Of a stretch of 64,000 nt of DNA, positions 9,726 through 40,524 are shown piece by piece. The notes beneath the pieces were generated by a model, which saw nothing but the letters and a program-made list of their open reading frames with translations, searched no databases and was not told the DNA's origin. The translations under genes and the position numbers were made by a program. Positions within the stretch are counted from its first letter, which is position 1. Every line of letters begins with the position of its first letter. This DNA comes from Dipteris shenzhenensis (lineage: Eukaryota), in the NCBI GenBank assembly GCA_047967505.1, contig CM106538.1. One strand, 5' to 3'.

Positions 9726-10087
9726 ATGTGTACTTGTCCTTCTGAGCCTTACCTTCATTTTCTTGTAGGAGATGGGTCTCTTGAAGAAGGTAATTGGGGA
9801 CAAGCAAGTTATTCTCCTTCTAATCCTTACCTTCATTGTCTTGCAAGCTTCATCATGGCCAACCTTCGTGCTCGAGTGCTCTATTACTACCTCTCACTGC
9901 TTCTTGTTTTTCTTGGCATCCCCTTCACTGCTGCTCCTTAGTGACTACCAGATGGTGTTCATCACCTTGAGGCAGATTATTGGGAACTAAGTTGCATTAA
10001 TCCGCTCGATTTTTTTTTCGATTTGAAAAAACCCGAGAAATCGTGATTTTCCCGAATTAAAACGAATCCAACGATTTTTCCTAATTT

Positions 10088-10275
10088 ATTCATACGAATA
10101 AGTTATTCGTACAAATAAGTTATTCGTACGAATAAACCTTTCGTACGAATAAACCTTTCGTACGAATAAGTTATTCATATGAATAAACCTTTTGTACGAA
10201 TAAACAAGGTTATTTGTACGAATAAACATAGTATAAATATGAAACAACTGTTATTTTTGGTATTCATACGAATAC
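10088..10275. repeat. Cluster of palindromic TATTCGTACGAATA-type repeats (likely TE subterminal repeats)
   Basis: About 8 variants of (tat)tcgtacgaataa in tandem. Confidence 0.8.
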
Positions 10276-10449
10276 ACCCAGCTATATTCTTGAGCCACCT
10301 GCTTGCCTGCTTGCCACCTCTTGGTTGCCTACTTGCTACCTCTTGCTTACTTCCATACCTACCATCTCTCGTCATAGGTACCTTATTGTACCTTACTTTT
10401 ATTATAGTCTTTCGTTAGTAATCAATGTTTCTCTCTCTTGTTTTGTTTA

Positions 10450-11186
10450 AGACTGGCACTCATCTCTCTTAGGAGAGTTGTGTTGCAATCTTTTTAAATT
10501 GTTTAATATTTATTTTGTATTGTATTTAAGTGTGTGTCTAGACAAGCTGGCACTCATCTCTCTTGCGAGAGTTGTGTGTTGCAGTATGTTTTTGTCTTGT
10601 GTTGCAATTTTAATTATAATATAAATAATTATCTTTTACTTGAGACTGGCACTCATCTCTCTTAAGAGAGTTGTGTGTTACAGTCCAAGCTTAGTGATGT
10701 TTTCATAGATGCTTACTCTGGCACTCATCTCTCCCTTTAGAGTTATGTGTTACAATCTAAGTTTAGAGATATTTTCAAGTACTTAGTCTGGCACTCAAGT
10801 GTCTCTTGATAGTTGTGTGTTGTAGTCTAAGTTAGATATCATGCAACGTTGTATTAGACACTTAGTTTGGCACTCAATTGTCCCTAGATAGTTGTGTGTT
10901 ACAGCCTAAGTTAGAAATCATGCGATGTGCTTTTAGACACTTAGTCTGGCACTCAACTGTCCCTTGATAGTTGTGTGTTGCAGTTGAATCCTATTGTTAG
11001 ATGGTGAAGTCCACGATTAGGCTATACCTAGGTCATTTTTTGTATTTTGATTTTCTATAGTATGTTACATGATTTGAGGCTTGAGCTTGAGTTGAGAGGT
11101 TATACCTAAGTAATTTCTTAGACTGCTTGCATTGATTTTCTTATTACACCTGGCACTAAATTCTTTTTTGAATTCTGTGTTGTAGC
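10450..11186 (+). repeat. Spaced ~38-bp repeat array (8 copies) upstream of kinase 1
   Basis: CTGGCACTCA-N-GTTGTGTGTT(G/A)CA near 10452, 10547, 10645, 10718, 10788, 10867, 10946 and, degenerate, 11150. Confidence 0.85.
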
Positions 11187-11200
11187 TTACTGCATATGAG

Positions 11201-13010
11201 ATGGCTCACGTAGGTGAGAAGAGGAAGTGTCAACAACCTGATCTCACAAAGTCTCAGAGGAAGGTGTTGAAAAACGAGAATGTACACTTCTTAATGAATG
11301 TCGATTAGGACATCATTGAGACAGCTTTCCAAAATGGTGAAAGTGGTGTACAAAATTTGGTGAGGACAATGGTAGCGCATGGAGGGAGGACCTTGTGTGA
11401 TCAATTTCCAGATGTTTTCACAGTAGAGTCTATAGACCAATATCTGTACCACTTAGCGATGGAGGGCCGACGATGCCTCGGTCAAATAGATCGAGACATA
11501 AAATTATGTGACACAAAGTGGGAGGGTCCTACTGTAGATGCCAAGGTCACGTACATCAAGAATGCGTGGCAAGGTTACAAAGGCAAAGGAGCTGCCTCGA
11601 CCTCCCTTCCATCAATGCACCCACGTCCCCAAGCACAGCCGCAACCACAAGCATCAATGCACCCACGCCCCCAATCAGATGCTGCATTACATCCACCACA
11701 ACCACAAGCACTAATCCACCCACGTCCCTAGTCATATGTCGCATTCCACCCAACACAGCCACAAGCACCACTGCAGCCACGCCATGCGTATGCACCAGTG
11801 CATCCACCACAACATGTCGAACCCCGTATCCCTTTTTTCCAATATCTTTCATACCTAGAAGTTCCTCCTCCTTTTTCACATCTCCTAGCACATGCATGAT
11901 CACATTTCACCACATCTTTTGTGCCTCCTATCGCACACGCAGACCAGGTTTCATCTCTCGTATTTTTGCCTGCACCACAAATGCACAATTTATCTGCACA
12001 AGTAGATACATTCCCATCTCCTTCATTCTCGCCTGCACAAGCACCACGCACATCACATGGCTTGTGTGATCATGTAGAAGTGCCAAGACCCATGCGGCCC
12101 ATACTGCTTCAGCAACGAGACATCCGATTCACACCTAGTGCAGTTGTGGGCACAGGTACGAAAGGAACAGTCAACATGTGCAATATTCTTGTCGCTCCCT
12201 TTGAAAGGGACAAGATTTATGCATGTAAGGTGCTGAGGGTTTCTGTGTCCGTGGATGCATTGAAGGCCAGTGCATTGGAAGAAGCCACATGCTTGGGCGA
12301 TGTCGTACATCCGAGCATCATCCGGGCAATAGGTCTAGTCCATGACGATAACCCAATGATACTATTTTCGTTCTAGAATGGAATTGGAAAGATGGGTAAC
12401 CTATCTCGGACATGACAAAAAGCGACCATCTTCGGTGTTTCACAGAGATGATGCGGAAATGCCTGCTAGGGTCCATCAGCATGTATTTGATATTTTAAGT
12501 GCACTAGTTCGCACTATTCATTACATGCACCAACACAATGTCCTGCATAATGATTTGCATGTGCAAAACATTATGCTACACTTCTCGGAGTCATCCGAGG
12601 AGGTGTATCTAGGCATTTGTGATTGGGGAATGATGACCCCATGCAGCACTAGAAAGCACCATCCCGCATTACTCAGTGACAGCCCCAACACTGTGCGAAG
12701 CTCCATTGCTAGGTTTCGTCACGTTGCTCTAGAGTGCCTTTGCACCAATCCCCCACCTTTCGATGTTGCACAGGATGTGTATGCCATGTCTCATCACATC
12801 CTGAAAATCTTGGACATTTGTGCACCATCGCCAAGTACGAGGCCTGCAGAAGCTGTAATCGGGCGTTTGTGACGATTTGCAGTTCAGGGAAAGTCAACCA
12901 AACCGAATAGACGTCCAAGTATTGCAAATTTTTGTGGGGTTTTTGACATTGCTCCAAGATGTGGTATACCGCTCAGTCCAAACCAAGGACTTAGAGCAGC
13001 CAATGACTGA
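11201..13010 (+). pseudogene. Atypical protein kinase with N-terminal NLS-like motif and Pro/Gln/His linker
   Basis: One frame from ATG 11201 (MAHVGEKRK) through ORFs 11357 and 11921, broken by stops at ~11306, 11729, ~11897 and 12374, then a frameshift into 12378-12872. Motifs VGTGTKGTV, YACKVL, HPSIIRAIG, HNDLHVQNIML, ICDWGM, VALEC, DVYA, PNRRP. Confidence 0.85.
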
Positions 13011-13119
13011 GTCTTTCTTGGATGCCAAGATGTAACATGAGTGACCGATCATGGAACTTGTAACATTTTTAGTTTTATATATCATCCACTCCATTGTTCG
13101 AACAATTTGTATATTTACA

Positions 13120-13330
13120 GTGACATGATAAATGATGCGATAAGTAATGTTTAAATATTGTTTGTATAAGTAAATGATGCGATAAAAATGATGATCCAAT
13201 TGTCAAATATGATAAATGATGCAATAATTAATGTTTAACTATTATTTGTATAACTGAATGTTGCGATAAAAATGATGGTCCAATTTTAAAATATGATAAA
13301 TGATGTGACAATAAATATTTAGATATTATT
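13120..13330. repeat. AT-rich tandem repeat containing aaatgatgcgataa
   Basis: About 3 degenerate ~70-bp units between the kinase and ORF2. Confidence 0.65.
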
Positions 13331-13433
13331 TGTATAGGTTTAATATTATTTAATTGTTTAATATTATTTAAATATTTAATATTATTTGTGGTTACAAATT
13401 AATTTTATCTTGTTATCATTTTTTAGGCTAAGT

Positions 13434-14312
13434 ATGCGTATGGAGGGAGATAACTTAGAGAACATTCTCCCACAAGATCCTCCCCAACCAGAGCAACCTC
13501 CAGTCGAAGAGGGCCCACAAGGTGCTTTTGTGCCTCAAGAGGCTAATTTAGCAGACCAGCTAAATCACGCCGAGGCTCAGGCTATCTTACAAGCGCAAAG
13601 AGAGATGCTGGGCAAAGAGGGACTGGGTATTTTTGTTGCTGGTCCAGTGGATGACGATACCATGCAAGGCGACCCGGTCTCTTCTCGACAAATACAGAGA
13701 CTATGCCCATCAGAGTTCGTAAGAAACACCTTGTTTCTTCGTTCAGGAAGTGCTAGGAATAAATATGCAGAGCCCAAGTTGTCAGACTTGCGGCATAAAA
13801 CCCTAGCCCACATCCTTCTCCAACGATTCATAGAGGTGGAAGGAAGCATTCCCAATAACCAACAAATACCCATGTATTTCATCCAACAGGTGTATGTTTA
13901 CGACATCTTGCATCGACGCATGGATTGGAATGACAAGCATCACTTGTTAGGAACAGGAAAGGGGTGTCCTGCAGAGCGCAAGCGAGCAAGGACAGAGAAC
14001 AGAGAGCCCGTGTCTCAGAGACCTCGTGTGCTAACTCCCCATGCACACAGTGTTCTTGTTGACTTGGCCACATCTGCCATACCTCTCCGTCAACAAGGTG
14101 TTACTGCTGAGGAGTTACAAGATCGCGTTGCATCACAAGCCAAAGAGATCGAGGACCTACAAGCACGTGGACAGACGTTGGATTTTGAGCTTGCATGCTA
14201 TAGACAGTCCTCTGGAGATTTGGATGCAGCTGAGGATACTGATATATTTGATTTTGAGGACCTCACTAATATAGATTCAGAGGGTGTAGGACAAGCACTC
14301 AGGGAACAGTAG
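13434..14312 (+). CDS. Intact orphan protein (ORF2 of kinase-hAT unit) with C-terminal coiled coil and acidic tail
   Basis: Uninterrupted ORF, ATG at 13434/13440. Its core (KLSDLRH...FIEVEG...VYVY...MDWNDKH) is similar to 37373-37530. Confidence 0.65.
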   Translation: MRMEGDNLENILPQDPPQPEQPPVEEGPQGAFVPQEANLADQLNHAEAQAILQAQREMLGKEGLGIFVAGPVDDDTMQGDPVSSRQIQRLCPSEFVRNTLFLRSGSARNKYAEPKLSDLRHKTLAHILLQRFIEVEGSIPNNQQIPMYFIQQVYVYDILHRRMDWNDKHHLLGTGKGCPAERKRARTENREPVSQRPRVLTPHAHSVLVDLATSAIPLRQQGVTAEELQDRVASQAKEIEDLQARGQTLDFELACYRQSSGDLDAAEDTDIFDFEDLTNIDSEGVGQALREQ

Positions 14313-14392
14313 ATGTGGATCCTACTACATAATTATGTACATTGTAAACTTCATATATAACTTTATAATACTCTTCTTCTGCAACGATGGTT

Positions 14393-14782
14393 CAAGTGAT
14401 ATAAGTGAGTTAAGTGGACTAAGTGATTTAAGTGGTATAAGTGATCTAGGTAGACTAGATGATTTAAGTGACTTAGTGATTTAAGTGGACTAAGTGATTT
14501 GAGTGATCTAAGTGAATTAAGTGGTATAAGTGATTTAAGTCGACTAAGTGATTTAAGTGGTATAAGTGATCTAAGTGGACTAGGTGATTTAAGTGATTAA
14601 AGTGATCTAAGTGAACTAAATGGTATAATTGATTTAAGTAATTTTCTATGGAATTAAGTGATCTAAGTGAATTAAGTGGTATAAGTGATTTAAGCAGACT
14701 AAGTGATTTAAGTGGACTAAGTGATTTAAGTAAACTAAGTGGTATAAGTGATTTACGTGGTTTTCAATGGATTAGGTGGACT
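14393..14782. repeat. 10-bp minisatellite (AAGTGATTT/AAGTGGACT/AAGTGATCT variants)
   Basis: More than 30 degenerate taagtg(a/g)nnn units. Confidence 0.9.
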
Positions 14783-15199
14783 TGTAAAGTTAATGCAGAA
14801 ATATTAAAATATATCGACGTGAATTAGTGCACATAATAGCTAGATCGACCCTTGAGACTTGAAAATATAAACTTCGATTGCGAATATTCGATTATTCTTT
14901 CCAACTTTCTGATATTCCCTTCGATGTTGCCTTGAAAGTATTTGCAAGTCACAAGGTTGTCTCTAACTATTATGTATACCAAAATCATCCACAATCTCAA
15001 TAATTACAACACAACATCGCTTGTAGCCCACAAGGTTCTAGATTTCAATACAAAAGGAGACGAGCATATGCGCGCTCCCATCGCTTGACATATTCTCCCA
15101 TCCATCCCCTCGCATACAACATTATATCCGATATAATTAGAGCTTCATCCACCGCTTCTATTACCTATCATATTCTTCTATCACTCTATATTGCATTCA

Positions 15200-16370
15200 A
15201 CACAGGCACAATATCGTCTATCTCTTCGACTTCGCTGTTGTCACTGTGAGTAGCTCAAGCTCATCTTCCTCTTCATTGAATGCACCCTCAACAAATAATT
15301 CTGTAGTCAATCGTTGTCCAACAATTCTCATTACAACGGCTTCGCTTGCTGCCCTAGCCGCAACGTTAAATCCTTTCAGCAATCATAGATTTCCAAAGCA
15401 AAATACCAAATCTGTAGCTCTTGATGGCTTTAAGCGATTGCGTCTCTTAGAATGAATAAAATCGTAATGCACTCCAATTTCGCTCACATGCACCTGATGA
15501 TGTAGCAACAGAGAGCACACGAGTTGCAACATGCTGTAACTCCAATTTCTCTCCACCATATTCCTTCCACTAAGTAGGTGCAATAGTCATCTTAATAGCA
15601 TCAAGATTCCAAGGATCTCCAAAAGAGCCTTCGTGATTCGTATATCTCACTCGTTGTTGGTAGGCCAGTTTTCCTTGATCTCCAGGAAGTAACTTTTTAC
15701 AAACCTCTCGAAAGTTTCTTATGACTTCAGGATTCTGTGATTGAGCATGCATTTGATATTGTGGATGTACTGCAAATGCAGCTCCATGCAAAGGGGTGTG
15801 CATTTGCTTCCATCTCTTATCATCCAAATATACCACTTGTTGCTTCTCCCTAGGAGCAAAGCGCATAAATTCTTTAACTTGTCGTATTGCTTCTGACATC
15901 TTCCAATACACTTTACCCATAACAAAGGCATCAGCATCAACCATCCTCAATACTGTTACAAATGGTTCTAGACCTTCTTTTATTCTTTCAACATTTTTCT
16001 AGAATAGAGATGATTGTACAAGATGTACACATTTAGAGCCTGGTATTGCACACTGCATCTTTTTTTCTAGCCAATTCGCCCATCGTCTATCAGCAATAGT
16101 CTCGCTTGACACACTTCCAACAATCTAGCAAGAACTAGAAAAGAAGTGGCAAATCTAGTTTGACAAAATTGCCTGAGTTGCTTGACAGAGTGCTCTCTGA
16201 ATACTGCATGCAAGTATTGATGACTCTTTGTAAAACTCACTACAACGTTAGCATCTTGCAGTACAGGTTGCACAAATGGTAATCGTCCAATATCCTTCAA
16301 CAATAAGTTGAGAGTATGAGCGCCACATGGCACCCATGTCAGAGTGGGATACTTTGCCATGACCATCTCA
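15200..16370 (-). pseudogene. hAT transposase (DUF659-type), C-terminal two-thirds
   Basis: WVPCGAHTLNLLLKDIG (CxxH), QTRFAT, RWKQMHTPLHGAAFAVHP, and the dimerisation region ...ACERNWS...RRNRLKPSRATDLVF. Confidence 0.88.
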
Positions 16371-19300
16371 CCTGCACATGCATGTGCGTGCATGTGCGCA
16401 TGCACACACATTTTTTTGTGAAATCACACACGCTAGCATGACTACATGCACACACACACATTTTACTCCAAAAAAATCACACACACACATGCACACATCT
16501 CCCTGACTCTAACCCCAAAACCACCACTTTGTTGTAAGTTGGATAGATTTTAAAAAACACCATAAAGGTAATCCATTCATACACAACACACACACAAACA
16601 CACATTAATGTAGCTCAATAATTGTATCTCACTTTCTCTCTATCACACACACACACACACACACACACATATTTTTTTTTAATGAATTGTTTCTTGCACA
16701 AGTATACATTCTCTCCCCCACAACCCCCAGCCCTTGTCTTTTTGGCCTCTCTTGTCTTTACATAACCCCCCTAACTTTGTCCCTCCAGTATGTAATCACT
16801 ATCCTAACTTCCCTCCCCCTAATATTTCTATTCTAAGAATGATTTAATCCTTGGTTTATAAGCCCCCCTACCATCTGTTTTATTTTGTCTCTTATTTCCC
16901 CCTTTTTTATTTTTTATAATTCATTTTATACCTTTAACTAACCTTTTTCTCCCTCCCTTTTCTTTTATTTCATTCCCTCCCCTCTTACACTTTTTTAACA
17001 CTAATATTTAGTAATGATTTTTTCCTACTATAGAATATTATTAATAGTTTATTCTTTTTTTCTTATTAGCACTTTTTAGGTTCCCTTTCCCCCATCCCCA
17101 AACCCCAACCTCACCCACCTCTTTGTTTTTTAATTGACATACTGTAATTTTCTCTCTTCCCCCTTATTTAACCTCTAAATTTGATTATACCCGTTGTTGA
17201 TGCTAATTAACCCCCTTAGTACTTAAACACACTTACACTCACACTTATATAATAAAAAGCATTCAACATGCACACTTATCTAATCCTAGAGCCCATAATT
17301 TTATTAACCACCCCTTTAACCCTTTATATGTGGCATATACCCCCCTACCCTATCTCTTTTTATGATACCCAATTTACTATTATATTTTGCTACATCCCTA
17401 AGCGAACTTTAACGCTTTCTTGTTGCACCGCCTTTTCTCTTGCTCACGACGACTATTTACTTCCTTCTTTTTATGTGGCCTATCGCTCTTCTCGTTTACT
17501 TCCTCCTTCTTAGCTTTGTGCGCAGCTCCTCCAACTTCTTTTCAAACTTGCTGGCTTCTCTTAAAAGTACATGGCATCGTCTTGTAACTACTCTCTTGGA
17601 ACTACAAGCTCAGGTCGCTACTCTTCTACAACCACACACACACGTACTCGGTTGATCTTGGTTATCCTTCTCGTATGCTATCCGCTTACACGTACTTGGT
17701 TATCCGCATGCTTTTTCATTTGCTGGCTTTGCTTTTGCTTACTGCATCTCTTCTGATTTTGAAGCTCTCCTCACAGCTTTTGCTTCTGCTACTTCTGCGA
17801 TCGTACATGCTCCGTTGTTCTTCTCACGTCCTTTTACAAGTCATTTCAGTTTCACTGCCTACATTTGTAAGATTGTAGTGTCATGGAGAACTTTACCGAG
17901 TCTTGATGTTATTCTGTAACAGGCTTGTTCATTGTCTTTATACGTCACTTACGCAGGTTCTTATTGTGCTAGAGACTGCTGGCTCTACTGCCTTTCCACA
18001 TTTTGAGTTCTATTTTTAAGCACTGCTTTTCACGGATGTTGGTCTACTAATTACTCTTACACAAGTCTGCGGATCACCCCATGCTTTGGTCATTGCATGG
18101 CTTTTGAGCTCACCGACTTCTGAGCTTCACTTTGTGCTTGTGTAAACCTGTGTGTGTACTTGAAGCTAGCTGACTTTTTTAGGTACACCTGGTTCGCCGT
18201 TTTGTTCTTGATGTTCTTTAGTCTGGCGCATGGTTTCGGTATGCCCACCTCAGAACTGTCGGCCTTACATAACCTGCGCTTCCATTCAACCTCTTCTTTC
18301 TTGCAACTTACAAGGCTCCTTCTCACCACCTTTTGCTGTTGCCTCATTAGTCTAGTCTTCCGCCCTTGATCCTTGCAAACTTTGTATTATTACGTGAATA
18401 AGATCTTAGTATACGCATTTAGATCTTGGCTTTGTAATTAGTTCGTATTCTACGCCTTCTCCTGATCTCATCTATTGCGTAGTTAGTGCATGATTTCTCA
18501 TTATTGCTGCACGGGTTGCCTAGACTACCCCCTTGGCTCAAACCCTAATAGGCGCAGCTTAAAAGCTTTCCTCTCAGCCCTTGTTTGACACCTAGGGCCC
18601 CTCATTTTGCCTTTTATTATTATATGTTCTACCTTTATATATGTTTAAAATATATATACTCTTATAGTTATAATGATACTCTTATGTAGTTACATATATG
18701 TATATATATATTGATATATATATTTATTTCTTTTTTTCATAAAAATTCTTTTATTTTCCCTTCACGTCATTGGCCTCCAAACCCCTTCTATAGGTTTGGG
18801 TGAAAACATATATGTATTTCCTTATTTATACACTTCTATGTTTGTTTTCATATTTTCTTTATAAGGTTATGTCTTTTGTATTTTATATATTGATGCTATT
18901 TATTTCCTTAAATATACACATCCATTTATTATTGTCTAAATCTTCTTATATAGATATGGCATTTTTTTAAAGGCATGGTACAATTGTTAGCCATCAGATT
19001 TTGTACGCTTCCTTTTTTTTATAAATATATATATAGATTTAAGCTTTTCCCTCTATCTATGATTTTGTTTTTATTTACTTTTGTTGACTATATATTCAAT
19101 TATATATTGATATATGTTTACTTTTTGTCCTTTCCTTTATGATTATGTATATATATGATAAGAATTATTTTACATTTTTGCTATCACGTACTAAAATCTC
19201 ACCCTTTTAGTAATGATGTTTGTGTAATTTTTTAAAAATTAAGAGAAGCTATAATGCAAAATAGGATTGAGCATTAATGAACTATTCTAAAAGGAGCTTA

Positions 19301-19763
19301 ATTATTTATTGTGTCTTCTACTCTTCCATGTTGATGCTCTGCTTTGTAATTAAAGCTTTCAATTTTTATATTTCTACATTAATTTTTCATTTTTTCCTTA
19401 ATTATCCTTCATGGGAATGGAGTACCCCCCATCTTTAATCCATTTGATTTGTTTGGGAAGCGGATTACTCCCCTTCTGTAAACTAATCTATTCATGCATT
19501 TCTTCACTCTTGGGTGATTACCCTCCTTAAGTGTTTTTCACAATTCGGAATACTTTACAGTGAAAACCCCCGTTATGTTCTTAAATTACTTTAGGCCCCT
19601 TTTTTAAAAAAGAATTCTGAAAGGTTTGTGCATGTTCTTTGGTAAAGCGATAACAAGCCAGGGGATACATGCATTACCTGTCTACCCAAATTCAAGTTCA
19701 TTGTTCTAACAACTAGTTGGTTTGGATGGTGGCAGAGGTAAGTGGACCTCAAACTCAATATAA

Positions 19764-20220
19764 AGAAAAATTCTTTTGCCAGCTCGCCTATTTTCTTTTT
19801 TATAAAAGTTTTGGATTGCAATATTGTCAAAAGATACTTCAATTTAGTTTTATTTATTTATATTTTCCAACCAGTGCTTTTTGATCCAAATGATTGAATT
19901 AATTGTATGGTTCATTTATTGATGGGATTATTAAATCTAAACACACACACTGATCTCCCAACTAGTCTTTGGTCGAGCTAGTACCATACAAATAATTCAT
20001 TATCATTGGATAATTTTAAGCATGTTAAATATTTGTCTTTAGAAAAATTCTTTTGCCTATCCTCCTTTTTTCTTTTTTAAATAAAAGTTTTGGTTTTCAA
20101 TATTGGTAAAGGGTACTTCAATTTAGTTTTATTTTTCCAAACGAGTGCTTTTTTATCCAAATGGTGGAATTAATTGTATGGCTCATTTATTGATGAGACT
20201 ATTAAATCTACACACACACA
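19764..20220. repeat. Local duplication of ~185 bp (19764-19950 and 20041-20220)
   Basis: Both copies run agaaaaattcttttgcc...cttcaatttagtttt...gaattaattgtatgg...ttaaatcta-(ca)n. Confidence 0.8.

Positions 20221-21091: not shown

Positions 21092-21092
<1 letters not shown>

Positions 21093-21125
<33 letters not shown>
21093..21125. repeat. (TC)n microsatellite
   Basis: Direct observation. Others: (CA)n ~16644-16669, (TA)n ~22024-22051, (TC)n(AC)n ~37948-38003, (GA)n ~62287-62318. Confidence 0.95.
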
Positions 21126-21127
<2 letters not shown>

Positions 21128-22054: not shown

Positions 22055-22791
22055 CTCTTTTTTTTTTTTTAAGAACATGAAAATTTTTATTATAAAAAAA
22101 TAGTGTATTGTTTTTGTGTTGTACTGAAATTGAAAGTGCGAACAAAGTCTCCATAGGGGGTGACCGAGATAGGATCGAGAGATGCCGGGGGACGTGAGCG
22201 CAAGATTGGGACCGACACGAGGAAGTCGGGTGGACTTTTTTTATAAAAAACAAAGAAAGTGTGTTGTTGACAAAGGAGAAATGAAATGAAGATGAAGGGG
22301 CGAAATGAAATGAAATGAAATGAAAGGAGAGGCGTAATGAAATGAAAAAGGTTCCAAGCTTCGCCATAGCCATCCATAGCCATCAATAGAGAGCTCGCCA
22401 TCGCCATAGCCAGCAACCTCCGAGCTCGCCATAGCCTCCTCCTCCTTTCCTCCTCTCTCCCTCCCTCCCTCCCCCGCCATGCATTCCCTTCCCCCCCCCC
22501 CTTCCGTCGCCCCCTTTCTTCCTTCCCCCCTTCCCATTAGCGCTCCCGTCTTCCCCCCTTCTTCCCGCTCGCCCTTCGTCTCCCTTCAACATCCGCGGCG
22601 TCCTACTACTACCCCCTTGACGGCCCTTCATCCACCACAAAATTCAAGGTGAGCAGGACTTCACCGATTCGAATATCTCTGCGTCGCGACCCTCTGAAGT
22701 ACGGGAGCTCAAGACAACGCCTTGGTGGCTTGAGCCTGAGAACTTGTTGTAATTACCGAGCGAAGTGTAGTCGCCAGCAACCTATTCGATC

Positions 22792-26956: not shown

Positions 26957-27696
26957 CTGAAACCAGACTTCAGATAAACTAAAGGGCGGTGAATAAATAT
27001 TAACCAGCAAGTACTACTGTTTCTGCCACTTAGAGAAAACTTTCAGCAACACAAACAGAACATCGAATGCACAACGGGGAGCTAGATTGCTCCTGCACAC
27101 AAACCAGACACCAGATTGGCCCCAAACCTTGGCGCCCCTTTTGGTAGTTATTTATTTCTTTATTCAGAAGGCAAAATTACAGCAAAGCTAAATGCCCTTG
27201 CACATGTCCAAACATAGCCCAAATGAATCTCAACACTGGCAAGCACAAGCAACCTGCTACTCAGCCAATCCTTGGCTTAAAAAGGCATCCAAATCTAGTG
27301 CATGATACATGGCCAACAGTTCCAAAAATCCCATCAATACCTACAAGGTAGAATCACCCTTTTCATGGCTGTCCAAGCATCAATCCCTCAGACACACAAA
27401 GATTGCACACAGCCTGGAGCTGTTACTAGCAGCCCGACTCAGCCACAACTCTCACAGGTTGTTACTAGTGCCAAACCCTCCTGGGGATGCTCTAGCTGAC
27501 AGGGAAAAGAAAGCGACTCTCCATGTAACCTGCCTGATAGAGAATTCTGGAAGCAACTCTGTTGTTGTTCGGAGAAGCACACAACACCTTGCTTAGGCCC
27601 ATGGAATTAATACATTGGATTAGCTCTTTTTACAATTCTAATCTATAAGAGGCCAAAGCTACTCACAGGTCTAGAAAATTTGGAGTCCCCATGACA
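26957..27696 (-). repeat. LTR (probable 3' LTR of the gypsy element)
   Basis: Begins TGTCATGGG on the minus strand directly after a polypurine tract (~27698-27710). 26957-27500 is homologous to 33555-34087. Confidence 0.7.
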
Positions 27697-27764: not shown

Positions 27765-28355
27765 AGCGTCGCAGAACGAACCAGGCATAACCAACATTGC
27801 AAAATGAGCAATGAATAACCGAAGTTGCAGAACAAGCAACGCATAACTAACATTGTAGAATGAGCAATGCATAACTAGCAGTGCATAATGAGTAGAGCAT
27901 AACTAGCATTGAATAACCAGCATTGCAGAACGAGCAACCTATAACCAACGTTGCAAAACGAGCAATGACTAACCAGCATTGCAGAATGAGCAACACATAG
28001 CTAACAGTGCATAAACAGCATTGCAGAACAAGCAACACATAACCAACATTGGAGAACGAGCAACGCATAACTAACATTGGAGAACGAGCAACGCATAAGC
28101 AGCAGTGCATAACGAGCAATGCATAACCAATATTGGAGAACGAGCAACGCATAACTAACATTGGAGAACGAGCAACGCATAAGCAGCAGTGCATAACGAG
28201 CAATGCATAACCAACTTTGAAAAACAAGCTATGAATAACTAGCATTGTAGAACGAGCAACACATAACCAACATTGCAGAACGAGCAATGAATGGCCAGCA
28301 TTGCAGAACGAGCAACTCATAACTAACATTACAGAACAAGCAATGCATAACCAGT
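27765..28355. repeat. Tandem repeat (~28-bp gcagaacgagcaacgcataaccaacatt family) in the gypsy 3' region
   Basis: About 20 degenerate units. Confidence 0.9.
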
Positions 28356-31300
28356 CGTGCATATATAATTCTATAGAGCTCGAAATACAAGCCATATACT
28401 AGTGCATATCAACAATGTCTAGTAAACTGATCATAGAAGTCCCATGGCAGATATACCGTGAGCAAGCGGTACCTTGGGTGAGACATGAAGTGCCACGAAG
28501 TGACTTCTAGATAACTAAGCCTCTCTGTACCGAGGGAGTGGAGGTGCTACCCCCTCTTGAGCATTAGGCAATGATCCAGTATACTTGTGCTTTGTTGAGC
28601 CTGAAGAGCCACAACCGAAGTCGGCTCAAGATGAAAAGCCTCCATGTAGAGATGCAATAACTGCTCATCCTCCTCCATCCACCTCGCATTCAATGGTGAA
28701 TAGTTACGAAACTTTACCAAATAGCGATGGGAAACTCTACCTCGGACTTTTCTTTTACTATGTGCCAAGATCTATTCTTGAACCAAGATCTCATCTAGTT
28801 CCTCTACCTCTCGTTGTTCCTCATAAGGCATATTTTCTAGCACATCACCATCAAATGGCTTTAGGAGACTCACATGAAAGGCATTGTGAATCCTCCAATG
28901 ATCTGGTAGCTTCAGCTTGTACATCACTAATCTTCTGCAAGACCTAAAAGGGTCCATGGTATCTCATAGTGAGCTTGGCATACACCTTGTTTTGACCCTT
29001 CCGAGTTGTCAACCTTGCTTTCTAGAAACCCAAAAGAACCATACAATCTCGGCAAATATTGATTCACGGCAGTGCTTTTTAGCGGTTTTATTTGCTTTTC
29101 CAGAGTCCTTTGGAGAGCTAATTTGATCTTCTTATATGCCTCATCCAAATCCTCCACATACTTGTCCACCTCAAAGATTTTATCCTTCGTATGCAAAATG
29201 GGTTGGACTTTCCTCCCGCCTTCCATAATTTCAAATGGAGCCTTACCTATGGAAGTATGCATTATATTGTTATAAGAAAACTCTGCCAGTGGCAAATCCA
29301 ATTCCCATTTTGCTTTATGATATGAGACATAACACCTCAAAAGATCAAGGATAGTGGAATTTGCTATTTAGACTGCCCATCTGTTTGTGGATGAAAAGAA
29401 GATGAGAAATTCAACATGGTGTCCATATTTTCAAAGAGTCCTCTTCAGAATAGAGTCACCATGCGTGGATCTCTGTCACTAATGATAGACCGGGACATCC
29501 CATGGTATTTTAATATATTTTTCATGAATGACTTTGCCAATTGATCTTCTGTAATTTTCTTCCTCACCAGAATGAAATGGGCCTGCTTACTAGTTACAAA
29601 TTATAGTCCATATACCATCATGTCCTATTGGTGTTCGAGGAAGATAAAAAATACAATCCATGGCAATGATCTCCCAATGTCTATCAGAATAGGCAATAGC
29701 TGTACCAATCCTCCCGGTGTCTTTTGCTGGTCATACTTGATGTTATGGCAAATGGTGCATGTCCTAACATAAGCCTAATATCCCATCTCAAAGCTGGTCA
29801 GTAAAAGAAATGCTCGATTGCTTTCATTGTGGCATCAATACCTCTGTGCCCTGCATACGCTAGAGCATGACTTTCAGTAATAACCTTAGGCTTCAACTGC
29901 TTTGTGACACAAAGACGACCATGCATTATAACAAAACAATCTTTGAGAGTATAATGCTCATGCCTCTTTCCATCAGATAGCTTGTCATACTGTCCAAAAT
30001 CCTCATCCCCTCCAGATCGTTCCTTCATGGCATCCATCTCATTATGATATGCAATAGTGACAATTGAAACGTGAGATTTGTTTGACATTGCATCAGGCAT
30101 TGGTTTCCTCAATAATGCATCAGCAACAACATTCTTATTGCCTGGTGCATGCACTATCTGAAAATGGAACATAGACAAAAAATTTCCCAACATATATGTT
30201 TCTCTGCTAGCTTTTGCTAAGTGAGAAAGTATCTCAAAGAGGATGATTTGTCTAGATATAAAAGTCAGCACCAAGCAAATAGTGCTTCTACGTAGAAAGA
30301 GAATGAATTATAGCCAACATCTCTTTCTCATAAACCTGAAAAGCTATAGCACTCTACTCTCATAAGCAACCACATGTTCATCTTGCATAAGAACCCCCCC
30401 AATAATATTCCCGCAGGCATCACACTAGACAGCAAAAGGTTTTTGAAGATCTGGCAAGATCAACACAAGATCGGAGCACAGACTTTCCTTCAGCTCTTCA
30501 AAAGTTGCAATTTCTTTTTCAGGCCATCTGAATGGCCTTCCCTTTTTTGCAATGCATATAGAGGTGAAGCAATCTTAGCAAAATAGCAGATGAACCTCCT
30601 ATAGTACGAGCATAATCCCAAAAAGCTCCATACTTCATGGACCGTTTTTAAATGTGGCCAAGATTGGATTGCCTCAACCTTAGTAGTGTCCATGTGCACT
30701 CCATCCTTAGATATGATGTGCCCTAAAAAGTGAATCTCATGCATGAAAAACTCACTTTTATTTGCACTAACAACCAACTTGTGCTTCTTCAGTTCTATGA
30801 ATGCAGCTACCAAAGGCTTTCTATGCTCTGCCTCATCTTTCAAGAACACTTTAATGTCATCGAAGAAAGTGCCCACGAAATAATTGTGCTCTCAAAAAAT
30901 TATGTCCATCATCCAATTGAAAGTGGCAAGGGCATTAGTAAGTCCAAATGGCATAACAAGGAACTCATACAAGCCAAAAGTGGTCCTGAAAGCTGTCTTG
31001 TGCATGTCTTCAGGCCATATACATATCTAATGGTACCCACTCTTAAGACTAAATCCCCCTAAATTATCCAAGATGTCATCTATTCATGGAATAGATAATC
31101 TATTCTTGGTGGTTGTCTTATTCGGTCCACAATAATCAATGCACATCCTCCATTAACCACCCTTTTTCTATATCAAGAGAATCGTTGAACAAAATGGAGA
31201 GAAACTAGACCAAATCAACCCCTATCTCATAATCTCCCCTTGTTGGGATTTACTTACTTTGTAAGGTGGTATGTCTTATATCAATGGCATGATCCTCAAG

Positions 31301-33554: not shown

Positions 33555-34090
33555 TAAACCAGCCTTTAGATAAATTAAAGAGCAATGAATAAATCTTAAC
33601 CAGCAATTACTATTATTTCATCCACTTAGAGAATACTTTCAATAACATAAAGAGAACACAGAATCCACAATGGTGAGCTAGATTTCTCCTACAAAAAAAT
33701 CGAACACTCAATTGTCCCCAAAACTTGGCTCCCCTTTTGGTATTTCTTTATTTTCTAATTCACATTACAGCAAGGCTAAATTCCCTTGCACTTGTCCAAA
33801 CACAATCCAATAGAATCTCAACACTGGTAGGCTCAAATAACCTGTAGTTAGCCAATCAATGGCTCAAAAAGTCATCCAAATCCACAGCATAATCCATGGC
33901 CAACAGTTCCAAAAAATCCATTGACACCTACAAGGTAGAATCACCCCCCTCCTGGTTATCCAAGCATCAATCCCTCAAGGTTGCACACAACCCAGAGTTG
34001 TTACTAGAAGCTTTGACTCAGCCACACATCTCTCATAGGCTATTACTAGTGCCACCTTTGTTTCCCTCCTGGGGATACTCTAGTTGATAT
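33555..34090 (-). repeat. LTR-homologous segment (probable part of the 5' LTR)
   Basis: Colinear, diverged match to 26957-27500, e.g. ccaacagttccaaaaa...cctacaaggtagaatcaccc. Confidence 0.75.
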
Positions 34091-35059
34091 TAACCTTTTG
34101 AAACGTTTTCAAATGTTTCAATACAGATGAAACAGATTTCATTTTGACTATACAATTCTCTCCCTTACAGCTCTCCCCTAGAGCCTATGACACCTCAAAT
34201 AGGGAGACAATGCAACCTAACTAGTCTATGTACTCAAATCCAAAAGCATGGGGCCAACACAATCCAACTCGGCTATGATCTCAAAAGCGTAATAATAAAT
34301 ATAGAGTTAAAGAAAATAAGTTTTCCAAAAAGATAAAACATTTAAGTTACAAATCTAATTACAAGGGAATTTCCACTACCCAAAGGATAACATGAGAGAC
34401 ACATTTACCCAAGGAAAGTCTAAGAGTGCAATTGGTGCCATGGATTGCATATTCATGTAATCACATGATTTTTCTTGTGATTATGTGTCGTGATGAAATA
34501 TTTCATGCATTCATGATTACAATCATGGATTTACACTATCAAGTGGCCTTGACCTGGAAACCGGATAATACTGGTGGTAATAGAAACACTATCGGTGCTA
34601 TCTTGGTACCGGCGGTAGATATAATAGTACAATCGGTAGTGTGACACATTATTACTGGTAGTAGTAGTAACCATACCCCCAGTATTTTTACTACCGCCCA
34701 TAGTTTAAGTATAACCACTGGTAGTAGTAACACAACTGGTGGTATTATGATTCTTACCGCTAGTGGTAATACTGCTATCGGTGGTAATCCTTAAACTACC
34801 AACCGTAGTACTACTGCCCCAAAATATATGCCAACCGCCGGTTTCATTTTCTACTAACAGTGGATTGAGAAGAGGTATCTTCCTGTCTCCTGTCTCCAAG
34901 TCTTGGCTGAGGGTCTTGGTCCAGGAAGTGGTTCCTAGTCCCACGTCCTAAATAGGATGGGGGGCTAGTTGGAACCATGACCTAGAACTAGGTTTCCTTG
35001 GCCCTCCACATAAGGGGGGGGGATTTTAATCAAAATTTTTAAGAAATTATCTTGCATTT

Positions 35060-35210
35060 CTTGCATGCATGCATTGAAAGAATCATTTGTTGCATGCGTG
35101 CATTAAAAAAAATCATTTGTTGTGTGCGTGCAATGACATAATCATTTGTTGCATGCGTGTAGTGAAAGGATCACTTGTTGCATGCACTGAATAAATCATT
35201 TGCATTTCAT
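35060..35210 (+). repeat. ~30-bp tandem array (aatcatttgttgcatgcgtgca) upstream of kinase 2
   Basis: 4-5 copies sharing a TGTTGCA core. Confidence 0.8.
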
Positions 35211-35352
35211 GTAATTAAAAAAATTAAGAATGCATAGGCTGGGAGTTATTGTCAGATGTCTGCCTGCTCACTATTATGTGACAACTACATGTATTTGCTA
35301 GTGTCAAGCAAGAAAGCTTTCCGCACACACACATCAAGATCTAATCGCAAGC

Positions 35353-36496
35353 ATGGCCTCAACCGTCGGCACTAAGCGAAAAGTAGGGGAAGAGCTAAGT
35401 AACGGCGAGTGCATGAGAGTGATGAGAAGCATTTGGGATGCTTTTTTTATTAGGATGTGCAGACTACGTCACAGGGAGGAAGATTCAAGTTGGTGAGAAA
35501 ATCAGCTCAGGATCCTATGGCACTGTTTTGAAAGTGCGGTTGGTAGGAGCTGCAGCGTTGCCATATCACATGGAATATGTTGGAAAGAAGTACAAGGGAA
35601 ATATTGGGACACATACACGAGAAGCAAGGAGAGAACAACTCATACAGATTTTACACCCAGTCCTTATACGTGTGATCGCAGCAACCCAAGAAGAGCCACT
35701 GTGGACCATCACACCATACTTTAATGGTGGTAGCTTGTTGCAATTCCTTCAAATTTTGCCAATGGACCAGGGCAGGTTCACATGCTACTTCCACCATGTT
35801 CTCAGAGGAGGAGCGAATCTAATGGCCACAACAAGTCCTGGGGAAGTCCTAGCTACATTGGAGAAGGAAGATGTTGCTCGAATCAATGTCTTTTGTGAGA
35901 ATGTCCTCCATATCATCTATGCACTTGTGGATGGTTTGGGAACGCTGCACACAAGAAGGTGGATGGACATAGACCTACACCCAGGCAACATCTTATTGGA
36001 TTTTATTAGAAAGTCCAGATGGCGAGTAGGCATCATAGACTGGGGGATGGCCATGGACTTCTCAAAGAGTCGAAAGGAATTCAAGCATCTGAAGAAGCAG
36101 TCTTTGGAGACAGATGCCGAGTTTGCTGAGAGAGTTTGTAGGAAAGAGGAAGAGCATGGGTGGAAAAAGTGGCTTGCACCAGAGCTACAAGAAGTAGTCT
36201 TAAGAGGAAGATATACATGCCATGCAGATACCTATGCATTAGGATGGATCATTGTTGAGATGATTAAATTTTTTGAAGATGCCTGGGGCTATCTTGAGAA
36301 TGATTGAAAAATGCCTCCCTCTCATGTTATTAATGCCATTAAGCATCATGCGCATGAACAAATGATGCATCGCATTGCCGATCAAAGAAAGCCACCTGTA
36401 GAGACCGATGATATCTTAAAGAGAGTAGAATTTGAGGGACAGTTGGCTATGAGGCCTATGGAAGAGATGACTCTTGCCCTTAGGCTTGCAACATGA
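35353..36496 (+). pseudogene. Atypical protein kinase, same family as 11201-13010
   Basis: ATG 35353 (MASTVGTKRK), frameshift near 35440, then ISSGSYGTV, YVGKKY, HPVLIRVI, PYFNGGSL, DIDLHPGNILL, IIDWGMA, WLAPEL, HADTYALG. TGA at 36305, with in-frame continuation 36311-36496. Confidence 0.88.
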
Positions 36497-36897
36497 GCCA
36501 CATTTTTGCCTTGTACTATTTTTGGGACACCATGTGTCTGTCAAACTTATCGTAGTAAAGTTCTTGTACAAAAACAAAATTATTGGGCTTGAAAGAATTT
36601 ATAATTAGAAAAGATGCCATTTATGTTGTGGATGTACAGCCATTTATATTATGTAACGATTGCAACATTTGAAAGCATTTATCCAAGATTGCAACATGTA
36701 CATTTTACATAGCATATGTAACATCTTCATCTTTCATCGAGCATATTGCACGTAACATATGCATCTTGTGTCCTATCTCACATAAGATGAACTCAAAAAT
36801 GTTGAATTCGATGAATGCAGACTTTGCATATTGTACTCCAAGCATTTATCTATACTGTGCTATCCGAACTATAGTATTCGCACTATACTATCCAATA

Positions 36898-37816
36898 ATG
36901 TCACAAAAGGAGAGGATACTCCTCCTCCGCACAAGGAGGAGGATGTCTCCAGAAGAGCAGGCAAGCATTTATTGACACAAGAGGAGGCTAAAGAGGAGGC
37001 TCGATGTGACGAGCATCAATGGTTATAGTTCAAGCGGCTACGCAACGTTGCCAATGCAACACTCAAGCATGTGCTACAGACTATTGCGCATACATCCATG
37101 TACGCTCAACCTGGAGATCTGTATGTTTACTAATTCAATTTTTGTTTGAAGATATTGTCAATAAGTATCTAACTAGAATCAACACCATGTGCATTGGTTT
37201 TGTATGCATGCAATGGAAAGAAGTAAACAAGCTAGTCTCCAAACAAGAGCTCCAAGCAATCTAGCCCTTAGAGGCAGATGAAGAGGCAGCTTCAGCCAGT
37301 CAGGCGAGGAGATGCAAAAGAACAGAGGGAGATGGAAGCACCCCAACCGAAGCTTTAGACCAACACAGGAGGTGGAAGATAGCCAATTGCTGAGACGAAC
37401 GGATTCGGCAAAATGCTAGGCAAATCTACATTGAGGTATATGGAAAGCCCCCACACCATAATGAAGTGGTGATGTACGTGCACTTTATTAAGGGTATACA
37501 GGTGGACCTCTCCTCTTATAACGACAAGCATATGCGAGGTTGTACAGAAGCTGATCACAATTGTCCAAGGCATTGGAGGGTGCACATTTCAAGACCTCCG
37601 CCTCTACCTTGTGCCCACAATCTCCACGGACACCACATCTACATGTACGAGGATATGCACATCACCCATTTTTTGAAGTATCGCTCGTACATCACTCGGC
37701 TCACTTCACAACAGCTGGACCGCTATGCAGTCCTTCATAATCATTTGCACTATGCAATCCCTAAATCCATCACATGCAATCCTAAAGTCAGATGCCTCCA
37801 TCACATGCAATCCTAA
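36898..37816 (+). pseudogene. Degenerate homologue of orphan ORF2
   Basis: 37373-37530 reads WKIANC*DERIRQNARQIYIEVYGKPPHHNEVVMYVHFIKGIQVDLSSYNDKH, which aligns by eye to the 13434-14312 core. Confidence 0.55.
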
Positions 37817-37947
37817 AGTCATCAATTGGAATGGTTTCAATAGAATATTTCATGATAAATATTTTAAGGAAGGCTATATAAAGTAAACTTTAAAAGCATT
37901 TTCTATTTGCCATTGAAATATAATTATATGCACTTTCATCACAAGCG

Positions 37948-38007
<60 letters not shown>

Positions 38008-38374
38008 TAAAACTTATCTCTAAAGTCATTAAAGAAAAATGTTACCAAAGACAAGAAATTAAACTTTGCACATGCTTCTTCTACACGTCATCGCATAGGA
38101 TTATATTGCATATCAGACAGAGTGGTATGCCAGCTGCTGTGCTGTTGATCAATTGAACTTGGTCAAGAGCACAACAATTGGCATTACCACCCAGAAGCCT
38201 ATGCGATGGTGGCGACATGAAAGAAACAAAGCCCAAACCCTAAACACAAGATATTTACAATGCACAACAAGACAATTCTTATTCAACCCTAAACCACAAC
38301 CTGCAATCAAAAAACAAGAACACATTCAAAATACAATGAGACATTCAAAACCATATTGCCATCATTGCCACAAT

Positions 38375-40500
38375 TCACGAGTCACTATCCTCATCACGTT
38401 CGTCATCAATGTCTTCATATTCAGACCCATGTGAAAGGTGAATATTATTTCCTTCATCTTCATCAGCTTCATCCTCCTCATCGCTATCCTCCTCGGATGT
38501 TGCACCATCAGTCCTAGTTTCATCCTCTTCTTGAGGTTCTAGAATCTGCAACAATGGGACTGCTTCATATTGTATAGCATCAGGCCGGATATCATAGGTC
38601 CATTTTAGAACTTTCTCCTCATATCCCACATCTCCTAATGTTTCTAGGATTTTATGATTGGCATAGATGTACACTAACTTCTCAGCCCGATCCTCTAGAA
38701 GTCTATTTCATAAAGTACTATGAGTGTACTTGTAATGACTCCAGTTTCTTTCTAAGCCTGAGTTTGAGCATGTTTGAGAAAGAACCCTCATTGCAATTGG
38801 GCGTAGAAACTCACACGTGCCACCATTCATCATCCACCATTTCCAAGCAAATGTAGTTTCTGCCAGAAACAACCACTCCTTGCATCGATACTTGGCTAAT
38901 TCGTTACAACACTTTGCAAACTCATGGTTGTAGGCATAATACCATCGCACCACCTTATGAAATTCATGCATAACAATTGGGATCTCTTTGGGCTTCATAT
39001 TCCACCATTCGGGGTCTAAAAGGTACCCAACATTATGCAATGGATTATGAGCTTGCTCTCATCATAGCCTAAACAATTGCCATAATTCCTTGTGTTTTGT
39101 AGCATTAAATGGTCTTCTCTCATTCTCTTGGCCCCGGAGAGTAGGGGGATTCCTCGCAATAAGAGCTTGCTCAATACTCCAAAAGTGCATCCGTGCTTTT
39201 CTGATTGTTGGAGACTTTGAGTCTAAAGCCCTAAGCACATATAAAACAGGTTTCATAGCATTAGCAGCATCCTCAAACTGTTTCCATAATGCAAGGGATC
39301 CCAATGTTTCTTTCAAGTCATGCATTTTCTCCTTTGTTGCCCTATCGGTCAACTCTGACATCCATCATTCAAATGCATCACAATGAAATGTCTCTATAAG
39401 AAAACTCCTATTTTCACTAGTGATTGCAAAGTGCAGAAGTACGTAGCAAATCTCATGGTTGCAGGCAATTGCAACATGGTAGTACCATCTAGAGACATAA
39501 AGATTGCTTCAAGATGTTGCTTTGATCGTACTAACTTGATGACGTCTCAAGCCTCACAAACAATCTCTTTGAACCATGGCACTTGTTTATACCAATCTTT
39601 CAATGCAAGATTTAAAGTATGCGTACAGCATGAAGATGCATATAAATTGCTATACTCCCTTCGCAATATTCTACCTGCCTTTTTACAACTCTTGGCATTA
39701 TCCATGACAACCTGAACAACCTTTTCAGGGCTTAAATCTCTTAAAACCTTTAATCAATTGATGTGTGGAAGGCCTCCCGACATGGTGATATAACCATCAC
39801 ATTCAATAAAGCATGGTGTTTTATGCTTGTCCACCCATCTGAGACAATTGTGCATCTGGTGTTATGCAATTGCTCGAAAATGCTACGATTTATGTGCTCT
39901 TTCTCTTCTGCATATGCCTTATCTAACAATGACATATGCAATGTGTGGTAAGAAGGCGGCTTTGAAGCCCGGCCCATAGTTAGCAATGCAATTCCATGCA
40001 GCTCTCATATCATCATTTATCGACCATACTCAATGGATATCCTAACTGCAAGATTGATCTACCAAGTACATATTGTGCATTCTCCAAATCTTGAACCTGG
40101 AGGCTCTCAACTATTATGGGTTGCCTCAAGTTAGGAGTAGCAGTTGTTGCTAATCTAGCTTCAGGAGCCATAGGTGGCGATCTATCTTGCATGCTAGTGT
40201 CCACATAAGGAGTTCTGGCATGGGAGTGTGCAACACTTGTACTTCCATCACCATGTATGCTTATAGACTCTACTCCACTTATACCTTGACTTTTCCAAAT
40301 CAATCTTCTTTGTATTTTTCCAGAACCTTTCAACAACTTCTCTATCAAGGTGTGAGCTACTCACGAGCTACTGTAGCAGCTCCTGGGTTTGCACAACATT
40401 GAATGCCTTTCTTGAGTCACCAAGCAAGTGGCCCCTTATGCTAGGTGCTCCCCTAGAATTTTGTATTCCACAATACTTGCATTTCCACTCAATGTAGTCA
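38375..40500 (-). pseudogene. hAT transposase with BED zinc finger, DUF659 and dimerisation domain
   Basis: WKCKYCG...RGHLLG (BED, ~40400-40495), KPPSYHTL, CTIVSDGWT, VMDNA, CCTHTLNL, LDPEW, WKWWMMNGG...MRVLSQTCSNSGLERNWS, acidic C-terminus. Confidence 0.92.
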
Positions 40501-40524
40501 CGAACAAGGATTGCATATTCATGT

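Follow-up and report, generated by a model that had tools for sequence, protein, structure and literature searches.

A recurrent arrangement of kinase, orphan reading frame and hAT transposase in Dipteris shenzhenensis: possible relics of a composite DNA transposon lineage

Two collinear copies of a three-gene unit

We analysed a stretch of 64,000 nucleotides from contig CM106538.1 of Dipteris shenzhenensis (GenBank assembly GCA_047967505.1), referred to below as the window. The window contains two copies of a unit in which a gene for a eukaryotic-type kinase and a small orphan open reading frame (ORF), ORF2, lie on the plus strand and a relic of a hAT transposase converges on them from the minus strand. 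Copy 1 extends over approximately 11201-16423 and copy 2 over approximately 35353-40595; the two units are on the same strand, about 25 kb apart. An earlier note, made from the sequence alone, had proposed that gene order and orientation are identical in the two copies, and this was confirmed by Pfam searches and tblastn coordinates. Four collinear blocks are common to both: a head with the motif MA-x-VGxKRK, the kinase, ORF2, and the transposase. The spacing in copies 1 and 2 is similar: approximately 1.2 and 1.4 kb, respectively, separate the DLH site of the kinase from the ORF2 block, and approximately 1.3 and 0.9-1.0 kb separate the ORF2 block from the C-terminal end of the transposase.

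Homology between the copies was evaluated using tblastn of 15 translated pieces against the window and, separately, by comparing all 495 ORFs of at least 50 amino acids with the window. As the earlier note had stated, the copies are too diverged for matching at the DNA level. At the protein level, the kinases are 33% identical over 93 residues (E = 4e-7), and pieces of the transposases are 33% identical over 97 residues and 25% identical over 118 residues. In the comparison of the 495 ORFs, the kinase and transposase matches were the sole cross-matches between the two regions, and no common sequence was found in the flanks of the two copies. Each of the window's only two DLHxxN/DWG kinases lies upstream of one of its only two DUF659-type hAT relics, and by either search neither family has an unpaired member within the window. 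Assuming that hAT relics are placed at random in the 64 kb, we roughly estimate the probability of a convergent relic within approximately 2.5 kb downstream of a given kinase at ~0.04, and that of such a relic at both kinases at ~0.002; a chance adjacency of kinase and hAT is unlikely.

Of all parts of the two units, only ORF2 of copy 1 has escaped decay; each kinase and each transposase has acquired stops or frameshifts. The load of disruptions is approximately 2 per kb for each of the kinase and the transposase of copy 1. In copy 2, it is approximately 1-2 per kb for the kinase and 4 per kb for the transposase, a difference that is not significant by a rough Poisson estimate.

In the six-frame translation of the window, DLHxxN occurs exactly twice, as DLHVQN at 12552 and as DLHPGN at 35972, and DWG follows each occurrence, which bears out the kinase subfamily motifs that the earlier note had ascribed to both copies. 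The catalytic loops and DWG are followed by LAPE or VALE, and a histidine replaces the usual lysine of HRDLKxxN. In alignment A2 of the kinase family, D205, W206 and G207 show no variation, and N188 hardly any. Because the catalytic aspartate and asparagine, the aspartate of DWG, a VAIK-like lysine and APE are all retained, the kinase was probably catalytically active in its time. The motif VGxKRK also occurs exactly twice in the six-frame translation, at 11210 and 35365, in each case on the plus strand, upstream of the kinase and 3-4 residues past an ATG (heads MAHVGEKRK at 11201 and MASTVGTKRK at 35353), in agreement with the N-terminal motif reported in the earlier note. This KRK head is a short basic patch, too short to be labelled a nuclear localisation signal.

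The kinase domain of copy 2 (kin2) and the C-lobe of that of copy 1 (kin1) scored above the cut-off of the Pfam family Pkinase (PF00069; 31.7 bits), and the N-lobe of kin1 scored below it (Table 1). Two breaks were found in kin1: a frameshift at approximately 12373-12375, where an intron would not fit, and an in-frame stop at 12870-12872. The database relatives P0042, P0094 and P0096 align past this stop, reaching 13007. Moreover, kin1 is collinear with the 460-residue P0094: the N-terminal domain and the N-lobe gave scores of 73 and 89, respectively, each reached by none of 500 shuffles, and the C-lobe matched with an E-value of 2e-32. The kin2 ORF comprises 293 codons and ends at a stop at 36305-36307. 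This stop is premature, as relatives that include Adiantum proteins (P0002, P0068, P0007 and P0011) align across it, with a C-terminal tail extending to approximately 36480-36487. A putative 55-nt GT..AG intron would put the first coding block of copy 2 back in frame.

The second ORF, which the earlier note had described as homologous between the copies, was borne out as such, if weakly. Residues 124-225 of copy 1 ORF2 match positions 37352-37624 of copy 2 with a Smith-Waterman score of 63, which none of 500 shuffles reached (mean 37.9, standard deviation 4.3, maximum 57). The collinear place in copy 2 also ranks first of 58 real segment-strands of the window, the runner-up scoring 47. These values point to a real but weak homology over approximately 100 residues; using tblastn of copy 1 ORF2 against the whole window at E ≤ 1e-3, the copy 2 match was not detected. 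No Pfam domain was found in copy 1 ORF2 even at E ≤ 5, apart from SlyX at E = 0.1. A word-based protein search (1439 candidates) yielded no homologue, nor did Atlas. A single-sequence AlphaFold (AF2) model of the protein was poor, with a predicted local distance difference test (pLDDT) score of 36.

The transposase relics are of the DUF659 type, which we take to be of the Ac/Tam3/Tip100 kind. Relative to the gathering score of DUF659 (34.7 bits), the copy 1 piece at 16070-16423 scored 41.5 bits, the copy 2 pieces at 39550-39753 and 39753-40004 scored 56.4 and 49.1 bits, and the database relative P0076 scored 139.9 bits. For Dimer_Tnp_hAT (PF05699; cut-off 21.4 bits), the copy 2 piece at 38711-39058, in which the domain is interrupted by a stop, scored 15.7 bits (E = 0.014), and P0076 scored 23.2 bits. 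The copy 2 relic is nearly complete: residues 30-688 of P0076 map to 40520-38591 and cover a zinc-finger-like N-terminus, DUF659 and the hAT C-terminal region. Its reading frame runs through -3, -2, -3, -2 and -1 (four changes), and the aligned pieces contain five stops, including a TGA at 38708-38710. The copy 1 relic corresponds only to residues 318-671 of the 754 residues of P0076, aligning to the C-terminal hAT dimerisation part among others; the N-terminal 317 residues are gone, with CA/TG simple sequence in their place.

A search with the last 227 residues of the copy 2 transposase, read through its stops, picked out three relatives (41-44% identity) from 561 longer candidates. Identity to P0075-P0077 is 41-47% for the copy 2 transposase and only 22-30% for the longer pieces of copy 1, which places the two hAT relics in different sublineages, in parallel to the kinases. 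P0076 carries both DUF659 and Dimer_Tnp_hAT and is intact in many of the 21 sequences of its cluster (at least 90% identity), many of which are on contigs of 2.4-2.7 kb. SDGW, C..H..LNL and ERNWS, which we take to be transposase-type motifs, are kept in both P0076 and the copy 2 transposase. A long CT-rich low-complexity tract (40530-41400) immediately adjoins the copy 2 transposase on its 5' (zinc-finger) side and may conceal the end of the element or have taken its place.

Table 1. Features of the two units and their upstream repeats. Positions are those of the window.
Feature	Position	Strand	Remarks
Copy 1 far-upstream cluster of palindromic 17-bp repeats, TTCGTACGAATAA-type	10082-10225		9 matches with at most 1 mismatch vs 0.44 expected in the whole window
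Copy 1 upstream tandem array	10443-10985	+	unit ~72-79 bp ending TGTGTGTT(G/A)CAG; 4 TGTTGCA sites
Copy 1 kinase, first coding block (MAHVGEKRK...)	11201-11305	+	terminated by an in-frame stop, or possibly by a 45-nt GT..AG stretch
Copy 1 kinase, N-terminal domain	11309-11731	+	collinear with N-terminus of P0094; Smith-Waterman 73, 0/500 shuffles (mean 27, max 45)
Copy 1 kinase domain (kin1)	11900-13007	+	DLHVQN at 12552, then DWG; Pkinase pieces 11900-12373 (N-lobe, 25.7 bits) and 12360-12869 (C-lobe, 41.3 bits)
Copy 1 ORF2, orphan protein	13380-14312	+	open frame of 310 codons (ATG at 13434, 292 aa); matches copy 2
Copy 1 internal 9/18-bp tandem repeat	14394-14763		between ORF2 and the 3' end of the transposase
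Copy 1 hAT transposase relic	15374-16423	-	DUF659 E 1.4e-10; 3 frame segments, 2 stops
Copy 2 upstream 29-bp tandem repeat	35055-35185	+	4.5 copies; 3 TGTTGCA sites
Copy 2 kinase, first coding block MASTVGTKRKVGEEL	35353-35397	+	out of frame with the kinase ORF
Copy 2 kinase (kin2)	35426-36496	+	DLHPGN at 35972, then DWG; Pkinase 35426-36304 (56.6 bits)
Copy 2 ORF2 relic	37265-37816	+	homologous block 37352-37624; in-frame stops 37262-37264 and 37391-37393
Copy 2 hAT transposase relic, nearly full length	38375-40595	-	DUF659 E 3.6e-15 and 6.5e-13; Dimer_Tnp_hAT weak, E 0.014

Kinase relatives outside the window

An exhaustive HMMER search with kin2 among 1,835,955,588 proteins returned 67 relatives at E ≤ 1e-3, 14 at E ≤ 1e-10 and two at E ≤ 1e-30. 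Sixty-seven relatives are extraordinarily few for a protein kinase. DWG is present in 37 of them, D[LIVM]HxxN in 25 and both in 18, and 36 are shorter than 200 residues; such a tiny, mostly fragmentary family is typical of repeat-derived genes. The named relatives are all from the ferns Adiantum nelumboides and A. capillus-veneris, and include several Adiantum paralogues. The fold is that of an ordinary eukaryotic kinase, with the best matches in the PDB (e.g., phosphorylase kinase gamma) aligning from the catalytic loop to subdomain IX. A look-up of the relative P0068 in Atlas returned generic kinase clusters only.

A maximum-likelihood tree of the kinases was calculated from 34 rows: the two window kinases and those 32 of the 101 fetched proteins that span the catalytic loop through DxG and have 35 or more residues on either side, the remainder being excluded. 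In this tree, kin1 groups with P0094, P0042 and P0096 (support 97/91) and kin2 with P0003 (98/94), and the backbone is without resolution. As the window kinases are in separate supported clades, they are not each other's closest relatives. The database relative P0001 is 60% identical to kin2.

Kinases of this type were also sought in contigs. In viral contigs, 53 pattern matches were found, of which none was confirmed. Scanning metagenome contigs with the family alignment yielded 15 loci: 11 with a guanine-cytosine (GC) content of 0.42-0.50 and four of 0.67-0.73, the latter probably bacterial kinases. Pfam searches of the ORFs flanking these 15 loci returned only a sub-threshold match to SAD_SRA, in one contig (L002).

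Repeats and neighbouring sequence

The two units are preceded by different repeats. Eight of the nine window matches to the palindromic repeat upstream of copy 1 are within 10089-10272, approximately 1 kb upstream of the kinase. This cluster resembles the subterminal transposase-binding repeats of transposons and could be a candidate subterminal repeat of the copy 1 unit; the repeat scan of the window revealed no mirror-image counterpart on the opposite side of copy 1. The tandem array that follows has a core of 79-bp units at 10637-10984 (4.6 copies).

The earlier note had seen an upstream array of TGTTGCA repeats in both copies, and this was upheld only in part. The heptamer is indeed enriched, with 31 sites in the window as compared to 14.9 ± 3.7 expected, a count reached by none of 100 shuffles. 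Nevertheless, the two arrays are built from distinct tandem units, of 79 and 29 bp, and by inspection have nothing in common beyond 7-8 bases. TGTTGCA as a transposase-binding-type motif linking the arrays was rejected, as the contexts of the sites reveal no longer consensus. The heptamer occurs 12 times within 35088-40235 of copy 2, where approximately 1.2 would be expected from the window-wide shuffle mean; these sites are mostly on the plus strand on the left and on the minus strand from 36487 onward.

The window is plant nuclear DNA with a GC content of approximately 0.33-0.50 and abundant transposon debris. Between the two units, at 22771-25212 on the plus strand, lies an intact, intronless gene of 814 codons for a MYC-type basic helix-loop-helix (bHLH) transcription factor with bHLH-MYC_N, HLH and plant ACT-like domains. 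A second, weak HLH signal is at 63075-63629 on the minus strand. Elsewhere in the window are fragments of Copia-type (RVT_2, gag_pre-integrs/rve) and gypsy-type (Integrase_H2C2) elements. A pair of direct repeats at 26997-27593 and 33593-34054, resembling long terminal repeats (LTRs) and 55-71% identical at the protein level in several frames, encloses a gypsy-type integrase fragment (29798-30304, minus strand) and a tandem array of 28/56/84 bp (27771-28363); the whole is probably an old LTR retrotransposon that immediately adjoins copy 2 on its upstream side. Further repeated blocks at 44624-46916, 51825-52593 and 59640-60154, 54-90% identical in translation, surround a Copia-type relic (RVT_2 at 48255-49181; gag_pre-integrs/rve at 50434-50934) and are probably LTRs or nested retrotransposon fragments.

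Interpretation and comparison with known transposons

We judge the chances to be about even that the two copies are relics of a composite lineage of hAT-type DNA transposons that carried a kinase and a partner ORF. They would be two ancient, independently decayed insertions from two diverged sublineages of one composite hAT family. A DUF659-type hAT transposase with a zinc-finger-like head, a DUF659/RNase-H-like core and a hAT dimerisation region, encoded on one strand, would cut and paste the element. Converging on it from the opposite strand would be an atypical eukaryotic-type kinase with DLHxxN, DWG, APE and the MA-x-VGxKRK head, and the small orphan ORF2 would be the third component of the ancestral unit. 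The three genes would have moved together inside one pair of transposon ends. The kinase may have served the element, for example by phosphorylating the transposase or else a host factor involved in chromatin or silencing, a suggestion based solely on analogy to the ciliate TBE elements, whose kinase ORF is itself of unknown function. The more specific proposition, that an old fern hAT lineage stably encodes its own DLHxxN/DWG kinase and partner ORF and that kinase and transposase co-diverged into sublineages, is put forward more tentatively, at somewhat less than even chances.

The three blocks are homologous and collinear, have decayed in both copies, and include kinase and transposase pairs that are deeply diverged. 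As the kinase and the transposase of each copy belong to different sublineages from those of the other, the two genes would have diverged in parallel. Furthermore, long ORFs remain (the 293-codon kinase and the 310-codon ORF2) despite an identity of 33%, which suggests that most of the divergence arose under selection, before the copies died. A composite hAT lineage fits these data best, given the parallel deep divergence, the closer relatives found elsewhere and the survival of long frames. Random capture of host genes by Pack-type elements, which the earlier note had argued against on the grounds that it would not give the same pair twice, also fits less well: the trio recurs in two deeply diverged copies, and the kinase is collinear with full-length relatives.

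Several observations weigh against a composite lineage. The earlier note had suggested looking for terminal inverted repeats (TIRs) and 8-bp target site duplications (TSDs) around the whole units. We scanned jointly for an 8-bp duplication (at most one mismatch) beside TIRs matching at 10 or more of 14 positions, with 20 shuffles for each copy. The candidates were not above the shuffled background (copy 2, three as compared to 0-5; copy 1, four as compared to 2-11), and a generic inverted-repeat search found no inverted repeats framing either unit; both copies are old, and the transposase of copy 1 is truncated. That the trio was mobile as a single unit is thus something we infer only. In addition, the upstream repeat arrays are not demonstrably homologous. 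Two full-length relatives, P0094 and P0068, show no VGxKRK head at the N-terminus, although the motif is present at residue 38 of P0033. Relatives of ORF2 outside the window went undetected in Pfam, the word-based search and Atlas, and the match in copy 2 covers only some 100 residues. With only two copies in the window, sharing a strand and separated by 25 kb, an ancient local duplication would also be compatible with the data.

The kinase loci in metagenome contigs add to these points. None of the 15 contigs contained a match to hAT or ORF2 at E ≤ 1e-2, in flanks that for most are only 0-2.5 kb long. Five of the loci (L004, L005, L006, L008 and L009) are a complete repeat of approximately 3.17 kb that is 93-99% identical among them and contains the kinase without a transposase. 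The sequence of L008 is rotated relative to that of L009, whose two ends share an overlap of 128 nt, so that the unit would be tandem or circular. It carries only a kinase ORF of 480-820 codons and a proline-rich minisatellite. In at least one related clade, the kinase is thus multicopy without a hAT, and the kinase family as a whole is not hAT-bound throughout. Overall, the proposal in the earlier note of an old hAT lineage with dedicated accessory genes stands as far as the linked blocks in both copies and their parallel divergence are concerned; the scan for element ends did not bear out mobility as one unit, and the hAT-free kinase clade speaks against a link to hAT across the whole kinase family.

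Three other explanations were weighed. An ancient local (segmental) duplication of a host block comprising the kinase, ORF2 and an adjacent hAT-derived gene or relic, followed by decay, would require no kinase-carrying transposon. The shared strand, the distance of approximately 25 kb and the failure of the scan for TIRs and TSDs to exceed shuffles are in favour of such a duplication, and later insertions between the copies (the LTR-like pair at 26997-27593 and 33593-34054 and the integrase fragment) could have separated them. However, each window kinase is closer to database relatives than to the other (97/91 and 98/94), as is the transposase of copy 2. A single local duplication was therefore not their last common event. 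In addition, no homology was found in the flanks outside the three coding blocks, and a duplication needs very long selection on both blocks, including a transposase with intact catalytic-type motifs, followed by total loss. We consider this explanation unlikely. If the linkage did result from a local duplication, the locus would be merely two pseudogene clusters.

Less probable still, in our assessment, is that the kinase and ORF2 form an independent multicopy or selfish pair, or another kind of repeat, whose hAT neighbours reflect repeat-rich DNA or an insertion preference. The self-contained 3.17-kb unit of a related kinase clade, with its five nearly identical contigs and no transposase, is what this explanation would lead one to expect; the lack of a hAT match in the 15 kinase-bearing contigs, most of them with short flanks, and the window's wealth of other transposon debris fit it as well. 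It does not account for the identical side and orientation of the hAT, or for its similar distance, at both kinases, nor for the lack of unpaired members in the window; moreover, the decay loads of kinase and transposase are of the same order within each copy. A host gene cluster in which a domesticated hAT transposase and its partners are kept in microsynteny, the window holding two dead paralogous clusters, is the least probable. The 754-residue P0076, intact in many of the 21 sequences of its cluster (at least 90% identity; many contigs of only 2.4-2.7 kb), could represent an expressed gene under conservation, but a transposon active until recently would show this pattern as well. Both clusters in the window, moreover, consist of pseudogenes, and P0076 and copy 2 keep the putative transposase-type motifs SDGW, C..H..LNL and ERNWS.

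If the trio did belong to a composite hAT lineage, dedicated accessory genes would be on record for a hAT for the first time, and plants would have their own counterpart of the kinase-bearing TBEs of ciliates. The element itself would encode phosphorylation control of transposition or of host defence, providing a handle on how transposition is controlled or host silencing countered. More generally, eukaryotic DNA transposons could retain regulatory enzymes of their own, as so far documented mainly for ciliate TBEs, and the origin of a tiny, odd kinase family in fern genomes would be explained.

The hAT elements are textbook one-gene cut-and-paste transposons. Like other plant hATs, the relics in the window carry DUF659 and a probable hAT C-terminal region, which in copy 2 scores below the Pfam cut-off, and P0076 has both Pfam domains. 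To our knowledge, the hATs described to date carry one gene; the units reported here differ in that a kinase and a further ORF lie beside the transposase in both copies, and in that TIRs and 8-bp TSDs were not found. We found no description of a hAT with a kinase in the literature searched, which comprised main texts with subscription journals mostly outside, and one may be in print elsewhere. If confirmed, what is new is the kinase and ORF2 within a hAT, the transposase part itself being that of an ordinary plant DUF659 hAT. Pack-type and transduplicating elements likewise have host-like coding sequence beside transposon sequence. Pack-type capture gives non-repeated fragments in non-autonomous elements, whereas here a whole kinase gene is collinear with P0094 in copy 1 and with P0002 and P0068 in copy 2, and the trio recurs in diverged copies.

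Stable extra coding regions are known from other plant TIR transposons. In the passages cited, MULE and CACTA elements carry a ULP1-like protease region and PIF/Harbinger elements a second ORF, in each case recurring across families (PMC2528002). They differ from the present units in their cargo, a protease or a Myb-like ORF rather than a kinase and an orphan ORF, and in their superfamily. The closest analogue for the workings of the trio would be the TBE of Oxytricha, by analogy and not by membership. As far as the cited account describes them, TBEs encode a 42-kD transposase, a 22-kD ORF of unknown function and a 57-kD zinc-finger/kinase ORF; they are likewise cut-and-paste DDE transposons, with a gene set comparable to the trio (PMC4724952). 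Likened to them by description only, the units in Dipteris differ in that TBEs belong to the Tc1/mariner superfamily, inhabit hosts of another kingdom and have a zinc finger in the kinase ORF.

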